The position numbers and the translations under genes were made by a program. Under the pieces are notes generated by a model that was not told the origin of the DNA, searched no databases, and saw only the letters and a list, made by a program, of their open reading frames with translations. Shown here in pieces: positions 4,540 to 60,326 of a stretch of DNA of 64,000 nucleotides. The stretch lies in the sequence record NC_041906.1. One strand, given 5' to 3'. Source of the DNA: Escherichia phage EC1-UPM. The first letter of the stretch is position 1. Each line of letters starts with the position of its first letter.

Positions 4540-4554
4540 AGCTGCTCCGCAGCT
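4540..4554 (+). promoter_or_regulatory. Hairpin promoter candidate, copy 4 (upstream of RNAP II genes)
   Basis: AGCTGC-TCC-GCAGCT followed by TTTGG, as in copy 3; 34 nt upstream of ORF 4588. Confidence 0.4.
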
Positions 4555-38600: not shown

Positions 38601-41600
38601 GCGACCTTGAGCATCAAACTCAATGTTGTTAGCACCCATAATGGTATCGAACTTCTGCTGTGCATAATAACGGTCAGCAGGGTTAGTACTATCTGGGTCA
38701 GCCATGAATGCTTCGACGGTCAGGTTCTTAGTAACGTGTGTATAGTATTCCTGTGCACGAGCCATGGCAGCAGGATTAATAGCAGCCTCGGTAGCGAGTG
38801 CAGCAACAATGTTAGTGAAGAGACGTTGTTCCTGCATGTTCATGGTGAAGCCATGAGCCTGAACATCACGAGTTACTTTGGTTGCATTCACTACTGCATC
38901 AGAGAACTTACCTTTACGAATTACTTGCTGTACTGGTTCCGAACCAATGTAGTCAGTAATCAGTTTATCAAAGGTTTTCCCTAACTCTTCCAGACGAGTA
39001 TTGTTACCGTATGCTTTGTTATGGAACAGAGTAGTGTCTTTAGCTACAGCAGCAGTAGGAGCTTGTCCACGCATTACTACAGCAGAGTTAAACAGTAAAC
39101 CTGAGAACATATCATCTGCATTAGCAGGAGCTTTCTTACGACCAAATACCAGACGTTTGATTGCCTCATATACAGCCTGAACCATAGCCTTAAGTGCAGT
39201 GGTTTTCTTCTGCTTACTAATCAATTCTCGGTTGGTTAAACCCCAGGCCATGTACTCGTTCAATGCAGCAGCTTTAGCCATTGCTGGTTCAATGAAGCCA
39301 TTAGACAAGTGACCATTAATGGTATTAAGTGCATCAGCATATGCTTCACGTACTGCCGGAGATTCATCCTTAACATCCAGAGTACGGAACTGGTTCATCA
39401 GGTCTTCAATGTTCTGGACTGCTTCATTAGGAGTACCCTCGTAGTGAGCCAGTACAGATTCAAAAGTAGAAGCATGTACCAATTCATGAACCAGAGTCTC
39501 TAAGGAAGGGGTAACTAAGTAGATGGTTTTATCTTCAAAGTTAGTCCAGCCATATGCATTACCAGCTTCAGCAGCTTCAATATCTTCCGGTGCTGGGCGA
39601 GTAATATTCTTCTCAATGGCGTAGGCATCCAGTTGAGCAGGTGTACCGTAAACAACTTTATAGTCTTTAGCAGCAAGGGATTTCTGTATTTCTTTCAATA
39701 CTGCTTGCTGTTCAGGAGACATCTCTTTAGCCAGTTTAGTAATGGCAGTATTAGACAGTAGACGTACACCAGATTTCAGTACACGACCAACCATCTCCAT
39801 AGCAGGTACTTCAACCACTGGCACTTCCTTCACTGGTTCTACCTTCGTTGGTTCCGCTTTAGTAGCACGTACTGCTTCACGACGCTTGTTTAGTTCAGCA
39901 TCAAACAGTTCGTTCAGCTTAGCTACTTGCTGGTCTACAGTAAGACCTTCCAAAGAAATTTTACCGTTGTTCACATAAGGAGCGCCTACAGCAGCCATCT
40001 GGTCAACAGTGACCTGTACCTGGTCCATTACCTTGTGACGAATATCTACACCCAAAGCAATGTTACGCAGATTACGCTCAATCAATGCAATACCAGAATC
40101 TCTAATCATAGAAATTTTATAATCTCTATCACCATCTACTCTGGCAATATGAGCACGTTGCTCAAAGTCTAAAGCAGACTTCGCAATAGCATCTATTGCT
40201 GCATCGGATAACTTATTTAAATCAACATTCTTAGCAAACTTAGAGAAAGACTCATATACATTCTTGATAGGGTTACCCTGCCAGGAAATATATACAGCCT
40301 CATTAGCTTTACGGCTTGCATCAGTAATGTCATTGATACCAATGTTCATACCATCAAAGATTTTCAGGGTATTCTTCGGAGCACCTTTCATAGTAGAAAG
40401 GGTCTGCATCATCATGCCATCACCAGTACCGATGGTCATAAATGGAATACCTGCTACACCTGCCTGCGAAGGAGCATAGATGCTCATTGGCACACGCATA
40501 CGGTCATCTAAGTTGGTAGCCAGTACCTGGTTAGCAACATCAGTGTTTTCACTGCCAGCAATGTAGAAAGTCTGTGAGCCAGTCTTAATCATTGGAGCCA
40601 GAGGAGCTAAGCTATTCTGAATTTCATTCAGTTCTTTCTGTGTTAAGAAATCACCCTTCTTCCATGTTGGGTCTTTTTCTTTTTCTGCCAGCTTAGCCTG
40701 TACTGCTTGTTGGAACATATCCTGCAATACCAGAGATTGAATCTGAGTAGCCTTCTGCAAATTCTCAGTAGAGTGCATCAACCCCTCACCAACAGTGAAC
40801 CGGATACCTTGTCTCATTGGCTCAACAAAGAAGTGCAGCATATTCTCTTGTAAGTTCTTCAGAGAATCCCCGGATACGGTAAACCCCTGGGGATTTAACT
40901 CACCAGTCAGAACACCATCTACTTCCTTAATAAATAACCTACCTTTGCGTTTGGCTGGAATTTTGCCAGTCAATGCTTCCATAGAAGTAAGGAAGGTATC
41001 CAGCATAGCCTGAGCATCAGCCTCAGACGCAGCCTCCTTACCAAACATCGCCATAGCCGGAGAAATGCTAGGGTCAGCAGCACGTGCTTTCAGAACATCG
41101 CTTAGGCGTTCATAAATGGAATCAGTAATTGCACTTACCATTTTGCCAGCAATACCACGAGCACCAGAACCATAGATGGTAATGGTCAGTGGGTTTTTGG
41201 CGATACCACGTTTCAGGTCCAGAGTACCATCTTCATTCAAGTTAAAATCTTTGATGAACAAATCCATTAACTTCTGGAGATGGTCTATCTGGTTTATAAC
41301 AGAAATATCCTTACTATAAGCATTGCGTAATTCATTTAGATAGAATTGCAGACTATTAGTAGATGCTTCATACAGGTCAACATCGTCTTCCTGAGTATGA
41401 TGCTCATTCATAGTCTTACCAGCTTTACCAAAGAACAAACCACCTTTAGCAGTATTCTTAATCCAGTTTGAAGTGAACTTACCTCCAGTCATTAATACCA
41501 TTGCGTTGATTGGACCGTTGGTTACACCATCAGCTTCAACGTACAAAGGAGTATTAAAGTTGGCACGGTCATCACTGTTCAGGTAACGGGCATATTCCAT

Positions 41601-44600
41601 AAGAGCCATGAGAGCTACAAAGGATTTATCATTACCAAGAGATGTTCTCAGGATATCCACTGCATCAGTTGGTAAGTATCCAGACTTATCAAACTCAACC
41701 ATCATATCTACAGCAGGCTTCAGCTTACCTTCCAGAGCTTTGGTAAGTTCTTCTGACATAGTTTCACGGGTCATTTTATGAACTTTGATACCCAATGCCT
41801 GAGCCAGTCCAAGCTGGAAGCCTGAAAAATCTTCGTTGTTCTGGTTCGATAAATCCAGGGTAGCTTTGGTAGGTAAGATAGCCTCACGAACCAGCTTAGC
41901 TGATTGGGGGGTATATTTACCTAACATCTGCATACGACCAACACGGGTCATATTGTAAGCATAGTGGATAGGTACAGAAGAAATGTCTTTACTCTGTGCT
42001 CTTACCTGTTCAATAACAGAGAACAATTGGTTATAAGAGTCTTCTACTGAACGGTTCTTACCTTCCAGCGATTTAGCGTGGTTCTCGTTAAGTAATTCTT
42101 TATTCAGAGTACCAGCACCCATCAGTTCGAGGATACGGTCTTTACCTAATGCCTCATAGAACTGAACCATTGGGGTATGTACAAAGAACTCTGTATCCTG
42201 TTCTGCTTTAAGAGCAGCTTTCTGTTCTGGAGTATTACGAACAGCAGGGTTACGTAACTGTGTATGAGCCACGGAAGGAATATCATCACCCAGATACAAT
42301 TTCTCTGCTGGTTCTAAGAGTACAGCCTCCTCGATAGCAGTAGGATAATTATTAATTGCATCATTATCTTCTAACTTATCAATGGTATACAGACCAATCG
42401 TCTTATTGGATTCTGGGTCAATCTCAGACACATCCAGCATAGACTCTTTAACTTCACCCATCTCAATGAAAGAAGACAGAATCTCTGTAGCCATTGCCAC
42501 TGGGATACCCTTGGTATAACCAAGTGGTGCATCGGCATTACGGTTAAGCCCCCAGTAAGACTCAATCTTTTGAGCCAGTGAGTTAGTAGCTTCAACCAGG
42601 GTCTGAGCATTCTCGAAGTCAGCCAGAATACCTTCTGGTAACAAAGACTCATTTACACCAGTAATAGCAGCTACGTCTTTCATGTCTTTAATGGCAGCAT
42701 TCTGTGTAGCAGTAAGTCGCCATTGCAGACCAGCAAGTACAGCAGTCTCTAACAACTGGTCATTGAACTTAAAGGTATCACCATCTTTTTCTACGATGTT
42801 AAGTAACTTACCACCCACCCAACGGTTAGCCTCAGTCCCTTCTGCAAAACGTTTACCAACGTTCTTGTTAGCAAGGAACTTAGCCAGACGGTCAGACAGG
42901 GTAGTCTTCAGAGTTTCACCGAAATCAAATAAGTCCTGATAACGCTTAATCACATCACTTGTGAGAGCGTTATTTTCTTTTTGAGTGAATGCTTCAAAGC
43001 GAGCAACGGAAGACAATGCTTTCTTAACATCAGTCAAAGGAGACTCGGAACCAATGGTACGAGACTTAGGTTCTTCTGGTAGAGAAAATGCTTTAAGGAA
43101 CTGGTTCGGTGTCTTGTCATTGTTATAGACAGGGAACACTGTTTCCATTTGAGATAGAGGTTTACCACCAACGGTATAGTCTGCTTTCAGTTGAGCCAGA
43201 GATACTTCTTCCTTCTCAACGTTATTAGTGTTACGCCCAGACGTATCTACACCAACCTGAATCAGTGCATTGTTTGCTTCTACAAATGATTGAACAGTAT
43301 TAAATTGTTCAGGAGTTAGTTTCTGATTATCAAATAGTTGTAAAGATACAAATGGTTGTTCACTGCCTTTGTAGAAGGTAGAGCGAATAGCACCAGTATC
43401 TAGTGACATATCTCGATAACCATCGTGTCCAAATACATCAGACAGACTGATGTGGTCGCCATTGGAACCAACAACAGTACCATCAGCAAATAACCATGGA
43501 CTCTCCCTACGATCACCATACTTATTAAGAGTATCTTGAGAAATGGTATTCTCTTTTACATAAGCATCCTGTTCAGATTCAGTAGGTTGCTCGATGGTAT
43601 CCTCATTAGTGAGGGTAGCATCCTGTTTTTCAGACTGATTCTCAGGTTCTTTTACAGGCTGTGGTTTAGACTCTTTAGTAGTGGGTTCTGTTTTAACAGC
43701 TTCACTAACAGAGGGTTTAGTCTGTACAGTAGGGGTAACTGGTTCCTGTTTTGTAACAGGAGTTTCATCAACCTGATTCACTGGTTCACTAGTCTGTTGG
43801 GATTGAGCAGCATCAAGATTGCCCTGACGGAACTCTTTAACTACCTGGGCAGCAGGCTTGTCTAGACGTGAATCCAATGGGGTAACTTTAACATGAGAAA
43901 CATTAAGCTCCGGGTAAGCCGTAGCAAGTGCGTTAGCAATATCAGCTACGGTCTTGGCTTCCAGTCCTACTTGCTGGGCAAACTTAACCGACTTGGTATC
44001 ATACGGATTGACACCGAGGCCAGTACGACTACGTACCCATTCACGCGAAGGAGTAAGAGCCTGATAATGGACAGACTTATTCTTATCCGCATTCCCAGAA
44101 ATCAGATGCTCATTCAACGCTCCGACCTTATTCTGCATGTGCTGGGCGAACTTCATAAAGTCGTCGAGATAAGCGGAAGCCAAATCGAAGTTACCAGAGT
44201 TGTACGCAGAACGAATGCGTTTAGCATGTTGCAACGCAGAGTACTGGCCTTCATTAGAACGAGACTCGTCGGTTTTAATTTGTTTACTAACAATGTCCTG
44301 AGGACGTAAGCCTAGTTCTTCTGCTTTAGCGTCAAATTCTCGTGCTCCTTGCAATAGAGCAGCAGCAGATTGCAGGGCAGCACGCTGACGATTCCCTAGC
44401 GTAATCTTACCTTCACTTGCATGTTTCAGAACCATGTTCACTGAGTCTGCATCCAGTACTTCTGGAGACATATCAGCAGCCATAGCAATGTTGTTTGCCT
44501 GGGCTTGGTTAGCTTCTTCAGTAGCCTTCAGTTTACCTGCTTCAGCCTGTTCCTGAATCATGGAATGAATAGCACGGAATGCACGGAGTACCTTCGGTGT

Positions 44601-46523
44601 ATTCTGAACGTTAGCCATCAGGCCAGAGAACTGGTCTACGATTGCAGCAGCAGGAGAACCTTGTTCCAGATTAGCCAGAGCACCTGGGTCACGGTTAATG
44701 AAGCTATCCATAGACATGATGTTGTCATACATCTGGATTGCAGCTTCCATTTGAACGTTAGGGTCTTCAGCAGTATTAACCAGGTCAGCCATTTTCTGAA
44801 TAGCTTCAACACGGTTAGTGGAACCAGAAACAGCTTCACGGATTGCAGGACTAGCTTGTTCTAGTTCTACTGGGTCAAACTTCATTGCCTGAGTTAAGTC
44901 AGCAGCATACTGAGTAGCAGCAGCTTTCTCTTCAGGAGAAATATCCATTGCATCTACTGCTTCCTGAACAGTTGCTTGTGCTTGTTCTGCCTGAGCAGTA
45001 GCTTCTTGTGCAGCAGCGTTAACTGTAGCGTCTGATACGGGAGATGCTTGTTCATTACGCTTAGCTACTTCTTCCCCACGTTGAACCAGAATGTTAGTAA
45101 TAGGAGAAGCTACTTTTGCTAGTGCCTTACCAGCCAGAGAAGCACCAGCCAGGGTAGTACGTACAGCAGGACCAACGGCAGCACCAGCAGCCTTAACAGT
45201 TGCACCAGGAGCTTGAGCAACTCCAGCAGAACCAAAGCCATACAACGCACCAAGACCAGTTTGTTCACCCACACCTTTAAGCAATTCACGATTAGCATCT
45301 ACATTACCTTGAATTGCTTTGTTCTGTGCAAACTGACTTGTACCAGACTGGATACCTTCTTCCACAGTTTCACGGAGCATGTTAGAACCAGCACCGGCCA
45401 GTGAACCTACCTTGAGTGGGTTAAGTTCAAACTTAGATACCAGTGGACCAGTAATAGCAGCAACCGGAGCAGTTAAGCCAGCAGCAGTGATACCTGTTTC
45501 AGATGCAGTCTGACGTCGTGCCTCTTCAGGAGTTAAGCCGTCTTTAATATGCTGTTGGTATACTGGGGATTTAGCAGCCAGTTCACTGAATGGCATTTCC
45601 ATAATTTCATTGGCAGTCTGTTGGTATGCACCACCAGCTTCCATACCACCAATTGCTATAGCAGGTGCAGCAACACGACCAGTAGCTAATGCAGTACGTG
45701 CAGGACGTGAACCTAATTCAGCAGCTAAGGTAATACCCTTAACAGCTTTATCTCCACCTACCATTACTTTACCTAGTGCAGATACACCACGAATTAATGG
45801 GCCACCGGTAAAGAGAGAACCAACACCCTCAGCCAGACCATCTGTAGCAGCCATGCCATTAGATAAGGTGTTAGCAACAGAATCATAAGCATCACGACCG
45901 ATACGAGACAGGGAAGCAACGAGTTCACTTTCTCCTTTATCAATATCCTGCTTATAGAGTTTCTCATTTTCCTGTGCAGATATTACGTTCTGGTTCTGTA
46001 CTACATTACGACGAGCATTCAATGCATCAGACTGTAGGTTGTGTACACCTTTATTCAACCAGTCAAGACCGGAAGCAATGGATGCCCCGGCATTATCATT
46101 GACCAAGCCTGTGCCAAGAGCAGCAATGCCCCCGAGGGTATTAGCAACACCAAGACCAACACCAGAAAGGGTATCACCAAGTGCTTCACCATATGTACGA
46201 CTCTTAGTTAAATCACGACGAACAGCATTAGCTGCATTGACACGAGCATTGAGAATATCCATTCCTTGCTCATTGCCATATTTATTTATGATTTCGAGAG
46301 GAGAGGCATTAGTAAAATCTGCCTGAATAGAACCTGGGTCAAATGCACCAGCACCTAAGTTACCAGCACGACCTGCCTGTAATTGGTAAGCGTTCTGTGG
46401 AGTTAATTGGAAAGGGTTTTGCCCTTGTTCAGCTTGTTTCCGAGAGGTTGCAGTAGAGACATCGACTTGCTTAGCAGTAGTGATGCTGTCTGCGAAACCT
46501 GCCAGACGGTCAAATGTTGACAT
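35685..46523 (-). CDS. giant virion-encapsidated RNA polymerase (vRNAP, N4 gp50-like)
   Basis: ~3600 aa ORF, hallmark of N4-like phages; ATG at 46523 with AGGA RBS (track start 46541 is TTG). Confidence 0.9.
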   Translation of the reverse strand: MSTFDRLAGFADSITTAKQVDVSTATSRKQAEQGQNPFQLTPQNAYQLQAGRAGNLGAGAFDPGSIQADFTNASPLEIINKYGNEQGMDILNARVNAANAVRRDLTKSRTYGEALGDTLSGVGLGVANTLGGIAALGTGLVNDNAGASIASGLDWLNKGVHNLQSDALNARRNVVQNQNVISAQENEKLYKQDIDKGESELVASLSRIGRDAYDSVANTLSNGMAATDGLAEGVGSLFTGGPLIRGVSALGKVMVGGDKAVKGITLAAELGSRPARTALATGRVAAPAIAIGGMEAGGAYQQTANEIMEMPFSELAAKSPVYQQHIKDGLTPEEARRQTASETGITAAGLTAPVAAITGPLVSKFELNPLKVGSLAGAGSNMLRETVEEGIQSGTSQFAQNKAIQGNVDANRELLKGVGEQTGLGALYGFGSAGVAQAPGATVKAAGAAVGPAVRTTLAGASLAGKALAKVASPITNILVQRGEEVAKRNEQASPVSDATVNAAAQEATAQAEQAQATVQEAVDAMDISPEEKAAATQYAADLTQAMKFDPVELEQASPAIREAVSGSTNRVEAIQKMADLVNTAEDPNVQMEAAIQMYDNIMSMDSFINRDPGALANLEQGSPAAAIVDQFSGLMANVQNTPKVLRAFRAIHSMIQEQAEAGKLKATEEANQAQANNIAMAADMSPEVLDADSVNMVLKHASEGKITLGNRQRAALQSAAALLQGAREFDAKAEELGLRPQDIVSKQIKTDESRSNEGQYSALQHAKRIRSAYNSGNFDLASAYLDDFMKFAQHMQNKVGALNEHLISGNADKNKSVHYQALTPSREWVRSRTGLGVNPYDTKSVKFAQQVGLEAKTVADIANALATAYPELNVSHVKVTPLDSRLDKPAAQVVKEFRQGNLDAAQSQQTSEPVNQVDETPVTKQEPVTPTVQTKPSVSEAVKTEPTTKESKPQPVKEPENQSEKQDATLTNEDTIEQPTESEQDAYVKENTISQDTLNKYGDRRESPWLFADGTVVGSNGDHISLSDVFGHDGYRDMSLDTGAIRSTFYKGSEQPFVSLQLFDNQKLTPEQFNTVQSFVEANNALIQVGVDTSGRNTNNVEKEEVSLAQLKADYTVGGKPLSQMETVFPVYNNDKTPNQFLKAFSLPEEPKSRTIGSESPLTDVKKALSSVARFEAFTQKENNALTSDVIKRYQDLFDFGETLKTTLSDRLAKFLANKNVGKRFAEGTEANRWVGGKLLNIVEKDGDTFKFNDQLLETAVLAGLQWRLTATQNAAIKDMKDVAAITGVNESLLPEGILADFENAQTLVEATNSLAQKIESYWGLNRNADAPLGYTKGIPVAMATEILSSFIEMGEVKESMLDVSEIDPESNKTIGLYTIDKLEDNDAINNYPTAIEEAVLLEPAEKLYLGDDIPSVAHTQLRNPAVRNTPEQKAALKAEQDTEFFVHTPMVQFYEALGKDRILELMGAGTLNKELLNENHAKSLEGKNRSVEDSYNQLFSVIEQVRAQSKDISSVPIHYAYNMTRVGRMQMLGKYTPQSAKLVREAILPTKATLDLSNQNNEDFSGFQLGLAQALGIKVHKMTRETMSEELTKALEGKLKPAVDMMVEFDKSGYLPTDAVDILRTSLGNDKSFVALMALMEYARYLNSDDRANFNTPLYVEADGVTNGPINAMVLMTGGKFTSNWIKNTAKGGLFFGKAGKTMNEHHTQEDDVDLYEASTNSLQFYLNELRNAYSKDISVINQIDHLQKLMDLFIKDFNLNEDGTLDLKRGIAKNPLTITIYGSGARGIAGKMVSAITDSIYERLSDVLKARAADPSISPAMAMFGKEAASEADAQAMLDTFLTSMEALTGKIPAKRKGRLFIKEVDGVLTGELNPQGFTVSGDSLKNLQENMLHFFVEPMRQGIRFTVGEGLMHSTENLQKATQIQSLVLQDMFQQAVQAKLAEKEKDPTWKKGDFLTQKELNEIQNSLAPLAPMIKTGSQTFYIAGSENTDVANQVLATNLDDRMRVPMSIYAPSQAGVAGIPFMTIGTGDGMMMQTLSTMKGAPKNTLKIFDGMNIGINDITDASRKANEAVYISWQGNPIKNVYESFSKFAKNVDLNKLSDAAIDAIAKSALDFEQRAHIARVDGDRDYKISMIRDSGIALIERNLRNIALGVDIRHKVMDQVQVTVDQMAAVGAPYVNNGKISLEGLTVDQQVAKLNELFDAELNKRREAVRATKAEPTKVEPVKEVPVVEVPAMEMVGRVLKSGVRLLSNTAITKLAKEMSPEQQAVLKEIQKSLAAKDYKVVYGTPAQLDAYAIEKNITRPAPEDIEAAEAGNAYGWTNFEDKTIYLVTPSLETLVHELVHASTFESVLAHYEGTPNEAVQNIEDLMNQFRTLDVKDESPAVREAYADALNTINGHLSNGFIEPAMAKAAALNEYMAWGLTNRELISKQKKTTALKAMVQAVYEAIKRLVFGRKKAPANADDMFSGLLFNSAVVMRGQAPTAAVAKDTTLFHNKAYGNNTRLEELGKTFDKLITDYIGSEPVQQVIRKGKFSDAVVNATKVTRDVQAHGFTMNMQEQRLFTNIVAALATEAAINPAAMARAQEYYTHVTKNLTVEAFMADPDSTNPADRYYAQQKFDTIMGANNIEFDAQGRSSLLPTFVGLAMVSEEVRKVLADIPVMKADKKSGNTVDAMLTNIGTAAMASLNARVAGDTKASNVQEGMDALAQTIMQTSLNAQSFYDSVATPTGNAIDRANQYLVDSIDVLSTRALGGAREVAANTKNPLVKGAAHAAQLVAAIATEKNGAIVAEGVMAAMNQGKVWQPFHDLVNDIIGRTKSNASVYDLIKAVRAQVQADRQQFREHLPTTIASKFSRKLTNDEWKAMHTGMGKTDLAVLRDTMPLDEIRDLLTDQKIVDREVNKLEADLQKQAGRNWPLISRKSKQLAQYMINGTVGNNLLRNATAISRLLGERKTTSSIVDVAQLDKLITLYALEAMNKTDREMLSSLAQTEIEGMDFATSYLVGQRKDEMAKAKSDSRATLNQYKGYIPSENKQGVNLIVAEDSQFADLIEKSYVRLGTYQGSSANRGSARSYYFAPVQAQAPFSQGILQNVRNTAGGADLGTGFTMGTMVAGRITDKPSVDRITKALARGERGNEPLLPVYDANGNVVAYEQSIDPNMLKHIEGDNHLARAIGVWRGRQVEEAKAQRFNDMLIENLHSMYENDLKMSASNKFQYVNLFDSKLDPVTADALKLMNSETRRKAESLFGPGELWVRRDMLNDALGYRAASVGDAWSGNSRWSPETLDTFKKAMLGVFGNRAYKYVMGGENLVQNLVKEAKTLIVVKSVVVPAVNFLANLYQMVARGVPVKNIAKSIPQKTAEINQYLKSRLRQVDAEAELRAATNPNQIRKLKAEIQSITDSHKRLSIWPLLEAGEFSSIADAGIGRDDILITEGKLHEYMDKLADKLPKSVRNAGRYALITKDTALFQGIQKTVEYSDFIAKAIIYDELTQRKGKTREEALGRVTEEFINYDRLPGRFRGYMESVGLMWFYNFKIRSAKVAVSMIRNNPVHAAMAMLAPTPTMFGNVGLPIQDNIFSIAAQGNLGYSFGFGQGLRAHNLNPWLNLTN

Positions 46524-46590
46524 AGCATGATTCCTGTTCAAACTTATATCGTATAAGAAGATTCACTGTACAGTAAGTGAATGTAAGAGA

Positions 46591-46610
46591 AAAGCCCCGG
46601 ATGGGGCTTT
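46591..46610 (-). terminator. intrinsic terminator-like hairpin after gp51-like gene
   Basis: AAAGCCCC-GGAT-GGGGCTTT between stop at 46627 and vRNAP start. Confidence 0.4.
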
Positions 46611-46626
46611 ATTAGTATGTAAGATT

Positions 46627-48573
46627 TTATCGAGGTTGCATATAGGGAGGTAAACCCTCTGCTAATTTTCGATAACGTTTAGCTCGTTCTTCATCTTCAC
46701 GACTGCGTTCACGCTCTACGGAAGCATTAGAACGGAAGTTCTGTGGAACCAGGTTCCCTTGATTAGCTACCACAGTATTAACAGCAGCATCCAGTGCAGC
46801 CCGTGCTCTTACTAACTCAGCTTCACGAGCAGGAATAGTAGCAGCAAGTCCGCTTTGACCAGCAGCCACACGACGACGAGTATCAGCAAGTAAGGTTTCT
46901 GCTTGATCTACCTGGTTCTGGGCATTAGCAATATTACCCTGTACCTGAGTAAGAACATTATCACGAGCAGTAGCTTCAATGCCTTCCCCACGTCGCACTG
47001 AACGTGCTAGTTCTCTGGCAACGGTATCGTCAATACGAATACCATTACCACCTTCCGGTGATTTCCCTGGTGTAAGCGCATCCCAGGTACGACCAAGAAT
47101 ACCCTCTGGTACGTTTGTAATAGATTGCTTAAGAATCTCAGCAGCTACAGCAGGAGACTGCCCCGATTCCTGCATAACTTTATTCAGTCGAGCTACCATC
47201 CATCCTTTCTCAGAACCTTTAAAAGCATCCTTGAGAAGACGGTCTGCTACTTCACCAATGGTGGAGTTGTCACGTAATGCACGAGCATAGTTAGCAGTAA
47301 TGGTTCCAGTATTATCTTCAGACTGGCGTGCAGCAACTGTATTGCCTGCCATGTTTGAAACTACTTGCTGGGTCTGTAGCTGGTCAAGAGGTGCACCTAC
47401 TTCTGCCTGTGCAATTAACTGACGTGCTTCACTCCACGGCATATCCTTATAACCACCTACACCCAAGTCAGGCAATGCAGCCCAAGTCTTGGAAAGGTTA
47501 CCACTCTTACGGTCATTAAAGATTGCTTCAGCTATTTTGTCCTGTACTTCAGGAGTCATTTGCTGATTACGCCAGTCTGAACCAAGTACCTTAGGTGCAT
47601 AGTCTTCCAGGGTAGCTTTATTAATCTGGAATGCTCCTACAGGGGAATGACCTTGTGACGGGTTATTAATCATAGTTTGCTGATGATTAGTAACCTCACC
47701 CAGTGTCATTTCAGTAATAGGCTTATCAGTAGCAGCAAAGGTATAGGTTGCATCATAAGGGGAACCAGAACGAGTACCAGCAGTTCCAGGAGCAGAGCCA
47801 GAAGGGGATGTAGCATAAGTACCAGGGAATCTCTCGTTCACACCCCGCATGATTGCAGAACGTACACCTGGGGAAGCATTCTGCATAGCAGACTCTGCCA
47901 GTGTAAGAGCATCCATAGGAGTGGAAGCACTACGGAAGATGTCAGTCAATATACCGGATGCAGCTTGTGAATCAGCATCATTACGTTGACGTACATTAAG
48001 GTCAAAGCGACTACTTGCCTGATTAATAGCAGCACCACCTTGCCCCTGAAGACGGCTCAACATATCCAGTTGTTGGTCAGCAGGAAGTGCAGATAATGCA
48101 TCACGGGTTTGACCTAATGCAGTATTAATACGGTTCTGGTCACCTGACTGATAAGCCTCAGACAGCAAACGAATAGCCGGTGAAGCATTATCTAGGGCAG
48201 AGTCAGTATTCTGTAAACGACCGAAACGATAAGCATTGTAGTCATTGGTTCCTTGCTGACCTTGCTGAGTCAGAAGAGTACCTGCTCGCTCATCCAGATT
48301 CTGAAGAGTACGCTGACTTACTAATGAAGGGTCAACCCCCTGGAACAATGCACCTGATGCTAAAGCATTACGATACTCAGTAGGGTCTTGGTATCGCATA
48401 GCATTCATCATGACGGCATTGCCAGCCTCCTGCTTGGCAGCGTTCTGGAAATTACCCAGTGCATCACTTAAGCCGGAGGTAGCGTTACCAATCATGTTTC
48501 CAAATGTGCGAATGCTGTCACCTACTCCAGAGAAGTTAGGTGCATCAACATTTCTCCATGTTATCTGGCTCAT
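46627..48573 (-). CDS. internal virion protein (N4 gp51-like) with possible lysozyme-like segment
   Basis: 648 aa, Q/N/G/A-rich; segment EMTLGEV...GAFQINKATLEDY resembles transglycosylase core. Confidence 0.5.
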   Translation of the reverse strand: MSQITWRNVDAPNFSGVGDSIRTFGNMIGNATSGLSDALGNFQNAAKQEAGNAVMMNAMRYQDPTEYRNALASGALFQGVDPSLVSQRTLQNLDERAGTLLTQQGQQGTNDYNAYRFGRLQNTDSALDNASPAIRLLSEAYQSGDQNRINTALGQTRDALSALPADQQLDMLSRLQGQGGAAINQASSRFDLNVRQRNDADSQAASGILTDIFRSASTPMDALTLAESAMQNASPGVRSAIMRGVNERFPGTYATSPSGSAPGTAGTRSGSPYDATYTFAATDKPITEMTLGEVTNHQQTMINNPSQGHSPVGAFQINKATLEDYAPKVLGSDWRNQQMTPEVQDKIAEAIFNDRKSGNLSKTWAALPDLGVGGYKDMPWSEARQLIAQAEVGAPLDQLQTQQVVSNMAGNTVAARQSEDNTGTITANYARALRDNSTIGEVADRLLKDAFKGSEKGWMVARLNKVMQESGQSPAVAAEILKQSITNVPEGILGRTWDALTPGKSPEGGNGIRIDDTVARELARSVRRGEGIEATARDNVLTQVQGNIANAQNQVDQAETLLADTRRRVAAGQSGLAATIPAREAELVRARAALDAAVNTVVANQGNLVPQNFRSNASVERERSREDEERAKRYRKLAEGLPPYMQPR

Positions 48574-60100: not shown

Positions 60101-60300
60101 AATATTACCGTAGTTGTGTAGTTAGTATTCCCGATAGGGCCATATCATAAGATGACTCTTAGATAATACTTAGTATGATGGGATACATCCAGACATAGTG
60201 GATGGTATTCAACTGTGTATGTTTAACATATCCGGGCAAGTAATCACCCTAACAGCAGTATCGGTTAGGGTAATGCAAACAATAAACTCTATATAAGAAA

Positions 60301-60317
60301 AGGCCCAAACTGGGCCT
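60301..60317 (-). terminator. intrinsic terminator after tailspike gene
   Basis: AGGCCC-AAACT-GGGCCT; on - strand followed by TTTCTTATAT. Confidence 0.5.
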
Positions 60318-60326
60318 TAGTTTTAA

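Follow-up and report, generated by a model that had tools for sequence, protein, structure and literature searches.

A conserved terminator, stem-loop and AT-rich box upstream of the virion RNA polymerase gene in an N4-like coliphage

The short spacer in front of the virion RNA polymerase (vRNAP) gene of Escherichia phage EC1-UPM carries an intrinsic terminator, a stem-loop and an AT-rich box, an arrangement that its relatives share. We observe directly the anatomy of this spacer and its conservation, compensating changes in the stem, no canonical promoter, and a related box upstream of gp69. We propose, with confidence evenly divided, that the spacer is an attenuator and mRNA leader inside the gp52–gp51–gp50 ejection operon and that it acts mainly at the RNA level. 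The two palindromes for which a first-pass annotation had singled out the region appear, from comparison with relatives, to be chance, lineage-specific details inside a conserved spacer. vRNAP, the product of a 10.8-kb gene, is the hallmark protein of the Schitoviridae, and only about four copies of it are packaged. Few non-coding segments of the late region are as well conserved as this spacer, whose conservation spans five genus-level lineages.

Layout of the locus

Coordinates refer to the whole stretch of DNA analysed, 64,000 nucleotides of record NC_041906.1, which we call the window. The window belongs to a Gamaleyavirus (Schitoviridae, Enquatrovirinae), an N4-like coliphage of the ECBP1/pSb-1 type. 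Its nucleotide identity in the spacer region is 96–98% to HK2, ZQ2, pSb-1, St11Ph5 and ECBP1, and about 85% to G7C-type phages. The gene layout is N4-like, with early and middle genes running rightward to ~33 kb and late genes running leftward from 64 kb to vRNAP. The features of the locus are as follows.

46627–48573, minus strand: upstream gene, homologue of N4 gp51 (66 kDa virion/ejection protein), 648 aa, stop codon TAA at 46629–46627
46585–46610, minus strand: intrinsic terminator, AAAGCCCC (46610–46603), loop ATCC, GGGGCTTT (46598–46591), then TCTCTT; from inverted repeat and minimum free energy (MFE) fold
46561–46582, minus strand: conserved stem-loop, ATTCACT (46582–46576), loop TACTGTAC (46575–46568), AGTGAAT (46567–46561); from inverted repeat and MFE
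46565–46574, no strand assigned: perfect 10-bp palindrome ACTGTACAGT, spanning, within the conserved stem-loop, the loop and three pairs at the start of the 3' arm
46543–46557, no strand assigned: 6-bp repeat with 3-nt loop, CTTATA-CGA-TATAAG; from inverted repeat search
46531–46550, minus strand: AT-rich box and ribosome-binding site GATATAAGTTTGAACAGGAA, holding TATAAG (46548–46543) and the Shine-Dalgarno sequence AGGA (46535–46532)
35685–46523, minus strand: vRNAP gene, homologue of N4 gp50, start codon ATG at 46523–46521, 3612 aa

The product of the upstream gene is assigned to phrog_6126, virion structural protein (E = 1.5e-302), and the annotations of relatives name it as the homologue of the N4 66 kDa protein. 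The vRNAP matches phrog_2206, virion RNA polymerase, with 4097 bits, and its N terminus, MSTFDRLAGF, is common to annotated vRNAPs. Together gp52, gp51 and vRNAP are the three ejection proteins. The vRNAP frame is open for six codons upstream of the ATG, back to TTG 46541, in all lineages examined (46524–46541), which is why ORF calling starts the gene at that TTG; we take ATG 46523 as the start because TTG 46541 has no preceding Shine-Dalgarno sequence.

From stop codon to ATG the spacer measures 103 bases on the minus strand. Read in that direction, the stop codon (46629–46627) is followed by the terminator (46610–46585), the stem-loop (46582–46561), CTTATA-CGA-TATAAG (46557–46543), AGGA (46535–46532) and the ATG (46523), with TTTGAAC between TATAAG and AGGA. 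Terminator, stem-loop, box, Shine-Dalgarno sequence and ATG folded together give an MFE z-score of −4.4.

Two further observations concern the genome as a whole. A metagenome contig, ERZ1034973 NODE-48 (73,011 bp), is identical to the window across the 120 bases compared, which include the gp51–vRNAP spacer, and may therefore belong to this phage itself or to one very near it. The ~2.7 kb that separate the rightward from the leftward genes (32982–35684) contain only short ORFs; ARAGORN found no tRNA gene in 32982–35684, and the counterpart region of PhAPEC5 has an annotated tRNA-Ile.

Conservation of the spacer among relatives

The spacer was first aligned in 14 Gamaleyaviruses and the alignment then extended to Jgk1, Moo19, the Klebsiella phages KP8 and phi1_146050, and N4. 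The final set comprised 30 distinct spacer variants, metagenomic contigs among them, and folding and covariation of the stem-loop were computed on 23 aligned variants. The order of terminator, inverted repeat, AT-rich box, Shine-Dalgarno sequence and ATG is kept in all 30. Conserved features are the terminator after the gp51-like gene, a stem-loop of 6–9 bp and the box GATATAAGTTTGnAnAGGAA, a layout common to five genus-level lineages of the Enquatrovirinae, namely the N4, KP8, Moo19, G7C and ECBP1 types.

Pollock, a more distant coliphage (Humphriesvirinae), has a terminator before vRNAP but neither stem-loop nor box. On this comparison the cassette of stem-loop and box appears confined to the Enquatrovirinae, because Pollock retains the terminator only.

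The terminator

The stem of the terminator is 8 bp long and 100% complementary, with five G:C pairs, and closes a 4-nt loop; the T-run that follows, counted from the GGGGC arm, is TTTTCTCTT. The site thus combines a GC-rich stem, a short loop and a T-run directly 3', as an intrinsic (rho-independent) terminator should. The homologous site in PhAPEC5 is annotated as a terminator (ARNold), and the GCCC/GGGC core and the T-run are invariant in the 23 variants. A simple terminator scan did not list the site at 46585–46610, probably because an A–T extension of the stem uses up the T-run.

Other late intergenic regions, at ~62.5, 53.3 and 52.6 kb of the window and also in N4, consist of a terminator followed directly by a ribosome site. 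Because they are built in this way, the late region looks like a cascade of attenuating terminators.

Hairpins with 8-bp stems and 4-nt loops number 13 in the whole window, compared with 1.2 in dinucleotide shuffles, and this class probably consists mostly of terminators. Separately, a 226-nt late intergenic region at 60101–60326 (minus strand) has a terminator stem at 60302–60316, after which come a hairpin at 60247–60270 (7 bp with a 10-nt loop, CCCTAAC...GTTAGGG) and a stretch of GGATATGTTAAAC; its PhAPEC5 counterpart shows no sequence relationship to it.

The conserved stem-loop

A hairpin of 6–9 bp folds at the stem-loop site in 23/23 aligned variants, and the sequences of its arms differ. 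By variant the arms are ATTCACT/AGTGAAT, ACTCACT/AGTGAGT, CTCACT/AGTGAG and CACACT/AGTGTG, with TTACACTA/TAGTGTGA in N4 and GGCTTACT/AGTAAGCT in G7C types. In the G7C types the register is shifted by four bases, leaving a 4-nt loop, and across the set the conserved triplets ACT and AGT stand 8, 6 or 4 nt apart. When the alignment of the 23 variants is held fixed, pairing is preserved in 83.9% of cells and two of the seven pairs are changed on both sides (CG/UA and UA/AU). The covariation score is 0.107, compared with 0.065±0.008 in shuffles (reached in 0/500) and at most 0.065 in slid controls. We conclude with moderate confidence that this is a selected stem held by compensating changes, with three to four lineages as independent events.

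The strand on which the stem would function can be approached through its non-Watson–Crick pairs, all of which are G–T when the mRNA-sense strand is read. Folding of the sense strand gives −5.5 kcal/mol or a stronger value throughout, and the antisense fold goes down to −3.3 to −4.9 kcal/mol in the N4, G7C and Moonfish types; in the ECBP1, Jgk1 and Moo19 types, however, the antisense fold is stronger than the sense fold, which makes the argument from G–T pairs a mixed one. This evidence, suggestive but mixed, leans towards a function of the stem-loop in read-through RNA. An Rfam covariance-model search of the spacer identified no family; its sole match, to CRISPR-DR46 in the terminator (E = 7; 16.5 bits, where the gathering score is 50), is a chance match. 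Hairpins with 7-bp stems and 8-nt loops occur 14 times in the whole window, compared with 4.6 in dinucleotide shuffles.

The invariant box and a possible internal promoter

The box pattern GATATAAGTTTGnAnAGGAA is identical from N4 to G7C in the relatives derived from BLAST and tblastn, bar one A-to-T change in phi1_146050. Some of the added loci were retrieved with the box itself as search pattern, and the invariance of the box there, being partly by construction, is not counted. No variant has an indel between the box and the ATG, and indels do occur upstream of the box.

The first-pass annotation described this region as a promoter with operator. What survives of that description is a conserved control region before vRNAP with TATAAG inside an invariant box; the promoter scan fails and an operator is unlikely. 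A scan for sigma-70-type promoters across 46000–47200 returned 0 sites. The −35-like TGTACA that the annotation saw overlapping the palindrome is indeed present, at 46572–46567, 18 nt upstream of TATAAG, and TGTACA-N18-TATAAG scores 9/12 in the window. It matches the −35 at 4/6 positions with a spacer of 18 in this lineage only; elsewhere the same columns match at 2–3/6 (TGTAGA in G7C, TATATA in KP8 and GGTATA in N4 types). A −10 element should have A at position 2 and T at position 6, and the latter position (−7) is G in the window and in every relative, phi1_146050 reading TATATG. As judged from sequence, there is no canonical sigma-70 promoter in the spacer.

A weak internal late promoter of another kind is the leading alternative, one that we consider possible but rather unlikely. 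Host sigma-70 RNA polymerase, activated by the phage SSB (the N4SSB homologue), would use TATAAG as a −10 element, with no functional −35, and make a separate vRNAP transcript that starts near 46537–46535 and has a leader of ~13 nt; the stem-loop would then be a promoter-proximal element or a mere separator of terminator and promoter. In its favour, the TATAAG box is kept unchanged all the way from N4 to G7C types, follows directly on a strong terminator and resembles a −10 element 6–8 nt upstream of a purine, but the G at hexamer position 6 is present in all variants, without a TG extension. The unconserved TGTACA and the empty scan also count against it, although N4 late promoters are described as only weakly sigma-70-like (PMC9163698; PMC4496689), so that a failed consensus scan is not decisive. 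A literature search for N4 late promoter sequences, transcription start sites or RNA-seq (N4, G7C-type phages, Gamaleyaviruses) yielded general statements only.

Considerations of dosage and distribution are similarly divided. vRNAP lies downstream of five serial terminators, and read-through alone might be too low; the stoichiometry of the virion, on the other hand, calls for less vRNAP, not more, and in phage DEV vRNAP is co-transcribed with the genes upstream of it. Further copies of the box were sought across the window and the late regions of N4 and PhAPEC5, and the only sites found are those upstream of gp50 and of gp69. The box is not over-represented, and it is absent from the other late intergenic regions, a point against the internal promoter; its recurrence before gp69 is a point in favour.

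A related box upstream of gp69

The leftward late operon begins with gp69, and the neighbouring gp70 points the other way; the region upstream of gp69 must therefore hold a late promoter, and it is here that the related box (AATAGACATAACTTTGTAG / TAGATAATTTGTAGG) is situated. In pSb-1, which represents the lineage of the window itself, the gp69-upstream box is AAGAATCTTCTTTAATAGACATAACTTTGTAG, compared with GTGAATCTTCTT-ATACGATATAAGTTTGAAC in the window, and the similarity extends to GAATCTTCTT. The core AATAGACATAACTTT is present in PhAPEC5, Jgk1 and JZBo1, followed by GTAG in PhAPEC5 and Jgk1 or by ATAG in JZBo1, and N4 has the shortened form TAGATAATTTGTAGG. Two further points favour a promoter: no canonical promoter was found on the gp69 strand, and in the Klebsiella phage JZBo1 the box is 10 nt further from the ATG than its Gamaleyavirus counterparts, which means that its place is not fixed by the ribosome site. 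N4 itself points the other way. Its gp69 hexamer, GATAAT, ends 13 nt before the ATG, which makes it too near for a −10 element because an RNA starting 7 nt downstream would begin inside the Shine-Dalgarno sequence.

Also before gp69 is an invariant hexamer, AAGAAT, which has A at position 2 and T at position 6; the box region starts 7 nt downstream of it, and TTCAAG or TGCAAG is found 17–19 nt further upstream. The main late promoter may be TTCAAG-N17-19-AAGAAT, whose spacer contains a hairpin. Such an arrangement would make the gp69 box part of the 5' leader of the late message, more plausibly than part of a promoter.

The block TTCAAG-(GGGGT-loop-ACCCC)-AAGAAAAGAAT is conserved upstream of the gp69 homologue and is followed by the box AATAGACATAACTTTGTAG; it is located at ~230–300 of the pSb-1 locus, at 35680–35760 (minus strand) in PhAPEC5 and at 36896–36960 (minus strand) in N4. 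Conserved blocks further upstream were rejected as the gp69 late promoter, since in both N4 and JZBo1 they fit TTTAGA-N16-TACAAT, a canonical promoter that reads towards gp70 on the other strand. The Achromobacter and Erwinia relatives have another gene directly upstream of gp69 and are uninformative on the promoter block.

The similarity of the boxes before gp69 and vRNAP is the best argument for a promoter, and it can be read in two ways. In the first, which we think improbable, the shared box (AATAGAyATAAsTTTG...), each copy preceded by a hairpin, would be the core of an N4SSB-dependent late promoter, one with a −10 only that tolerates a non-T at −7 beside a structure-selected hairpin. If this were true, N4-like coliphages would use hairpin-associated promoters at all three transcription stages, vRNAP would have a late promoter of its own and a long-standing gap in the N4 transcription scheme would be filled. 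If the box is instead a leader, the locus would be an ordinary case of terminator-graded operon expression.

Predicted pairing around the start codon

RNAalifold pairs GAUAU with AUGUC, which contains the start codon, and GUUU with AAAC. In the resulting fold the Shine-Dalgarno sequence is in a loop and the AUG in a stem, and all variation falls in unpaired columns. Control of translation would be one way to read this: a phage protein, possibly vRNAP itself, could bind the stem-loop, the box or both and limit translation of vRNAP and gp69, or the box could mask the start codon. We give this only a slim chance. The GAUAU/AUGUC pairing is proposed exactly, with variation in unpaired columns only, but the paired columns are invariant and hence provide no covariation evidence, the helix is short and AU-rich, and a freely varying spacer between Shine-Dalgarno sequence and AUG would be expected anyway. 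The fixed distance from box to ATG, the related box before gp69 and the fact that both gene products, vRNAP and gp69, are needed in few copies would suit an operator of this type; against this, it comes with no candidate binding protein.

The two palindromes

The structures that the first-pass annotation reported on the minus strand upstream of the vRNAP ATG (46523) are all in place. The perfect palindrome ACTGTACAGT is found at 46565–46574, where the repeat search lists it as ACTGTA/TACAGT, and it sits, as described, inside a longer inverted repeat, the 7-bp ATTCACT/AGTGAAT of 46561–46582, whose loop holds the palindrome in the window. The repeat with a 6-bp stem and 3-nt loop, given as CTTATA-TCG-TATAAG, was recovered by the repeat search at 46543–46557, reading CTTATA-CGA-TATAAG on the minus strand, with the TATAAG hexamer inside the hairpin at 46548–46543.

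Within the window, neither palindrome rises above chance, and statistical weight comes only through relatives. Perfect 10-bp palindromes are slightly depleted in the whole window (50 observed, 63±6 in dinucleotide shuffles); ACTGTACAGT with at most one mismatch has 6 matches where 3.5 are expected, and the CTTATANNNTATAAG pattern with at most two mismatches has 2 where 4.6 are expected. Hairpins with 6-bp stems and 3-nt loops are enriched as a class (42 in the whole window, 19 expected from dinucleotide shuffles), and one of them in a 100-nt spacer is unremarkable. As DNA hairpins the two structures are weak, at −3.7 and −1.9 kcal/mol, the latter value being that of CTTATA-CGA-TATAAG.

Conservation of the palindrome in N4-like genomes was a check that the first-pass annotation itself had named, with lack of conservation as one of two findings that would speak against it. 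The perfect 10-mer occurs in 4/30 spacer variants, those of ECBP1/HK2 and Jgk1 types, and so in the ECBP1/Jgk1-type subclade only; G7C types have ACTGTAGAGT at this position, and the loops of KP8 and N4 types bear no relation to it. CTTATA/TATAAG is a perfect repeat in 3/30 variants. Compensating changes were looked for in its alignment, and no pair is altered on both sides; its columns are mostly complementary only owing to the invariant right arm, and a 2-nt loop and an A–A mismatch would result in N4 and KP8 types. What the comparison supports is thus the longer repeat together with the TATAAG box; the perfect palindromes gain no support from it. The 10-mer would be a by-product, peculiar to this lineage, of the conserved stem-loop (its loop and top), and CTTATA/TATAAG a by-product of the invariant box and a partly complementary upstream neighbour.

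The operator proposed by the first-pass annotation, in which a dimeric phage or host protein would bind ACTGTACAGT or the longer repeat and control TGTACA-N18-TATAAG, is largely refuted by the comparison with relatives, and we consider it highly unlikely. There is dyad symmetry in the window, and some inverted repeat occurs at this place in all relatives. A dyad operator, however, should have half-sites and spacing that are conserved among relatives, whereas here the arms differ by lineage yet remain complementary and the distance between ACT and AGT varies, which one protein family reading a fixed dyad could not accommodate and which is typical of a strand folded on itself; few variants have the perfect palindrome, and its class is at chance frequency.

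N4 vRNAP promoters require a 5'-G(A/G)A-3' loop with a central purine on the template strand, a G:C closing pair, −8G and +1C (PMC4496689). An early, vRNAP-type DNA-hairpin promoter or other cruciform signal formed by CTTATA-CGA-TATAAG has next to no chance of being correct, since a 6-bp stem with a 3-nt loop is within the published geometry of 5–7 bp and 3 nt (PMC4496689) but its CGA/TCG loop and A:T closing pair break the loop and closing-pair rules, the weak DNA hairpin is not conserved and lies in the late half of the genome, and the early promoters of the window itself are clear and different. A middle (RNAPII) promoter was likewise rejected: RNAPII sites have been mapped to the left genome half only, where nothing related to the box occurs.

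The early hairpins of the window form a family, NNNNGC-TCC-GCNNNN followed by TT(A/T)(C/T)GG(A/T), on the plus strand at 133–147, 754–768, 1025–1039 and 4540–4554, with a possible fifth copy at 895–909, also on the plus strand. These four or five copies at the left end are mostly intergenic. In sequence the family is a clear match to the GC-GGA-GC template loop expected for N4-type vRNAP early promoters.

Discussion

The reading that we prefer, an attenuator followed by an mRNA leader, is one in which we have middling confidence, co-transcription being known only in the distant relative DEV. Host RNA polymerase arriving from the upstream late genes would meet the strong terminator (46610–46585), where most transcripts would end. 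The fraction that reads through, the presumed source of vRNAP mRNA, would carry the short stem-loop (46582–46561) and then an unstructured AU-rich stretch with the Shine-Dalgarno sequence (46550–46531). The stem-loop may insulate or stabilise between the terminator hairpin and the ribosome-loading region, and translation of the vRNAP message would be initiated in the AU-rich box. As a result, vRNAP would be made at a low level and in a fixed ratio to gp51 and gp52. N4 virions contain 12 copies of gp51, 12 of gp52 and 4±1 of vRNAP (PMC13434306), and a 3:1 drop to vRNAP is what one leaky terminator would give without any promoter. The separate regulation of vRNAP suggested by the first-pass annotation is weakened by phage DEV, in which the three homologous genes are co-transcribed as determined by RT-PCR (PMC11445570).

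Comparison with known systems

The DEV genes gp73-gp72-gp71 (PMC11445570) have the same order on one strand as those analysed here: a small membrane protein, a tunnel protein of ~650 aa and the giant vRNAP. Co-transcription is shown in DEV and is putative in this phage and in N4. Like the intrinsic terminators that act as attenuators inside phage late operons, the locus has a GC-rich hairpin and a T-run between the last two genes, and the step in the virion of the Schitoviridae ejection proteins is 12:12:4; the additional stem-loop and the invariant box, in contrast, do not figure in the cited papers.

N4 late promoters depend on the E. coli sigma-70 holoenzyme and N4SSB (Cho, Choi and Rothman-Denes 1995, as cited in PMC4496689), and they reportedly resemble the sigma-70 consensus only weakly (PMC9163698; PMC4496689). 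The spacer is like them in its position in the leftward late region, in an AT-rich, −10-like hexamer without a good −35 and in the related box upstream of gp69, a likeness judged through the gp69 region only. It differs in that its hexamer is without the T at −7 and that the N4 gp69 copy is too near the ATG. The early hairpins of N4 vRNAP share with 46543–46557 a 6-bp stem and 3-nt loop, but the latter has the wrong loop and closing pair, is missing the downstream motif, is in the wrong half of the genome and is not conserved.

Stem-loops in 5' leaders can stabilise or insulate mRNAs of bacteria and phages, as in the ompA leader, and hairpins can act as translational operators, as in T4 gene 43. 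The spacer, likened to these from its sequence and with no Rfam match, resembles them in having a short stem-loop 20–40 nt upstream of the Shine-Dalgarno sequence and then a single-stranded AU-rich stretch. As in those systems, it is the structure that appears to be kept, by compensating changes, and not the sequence.
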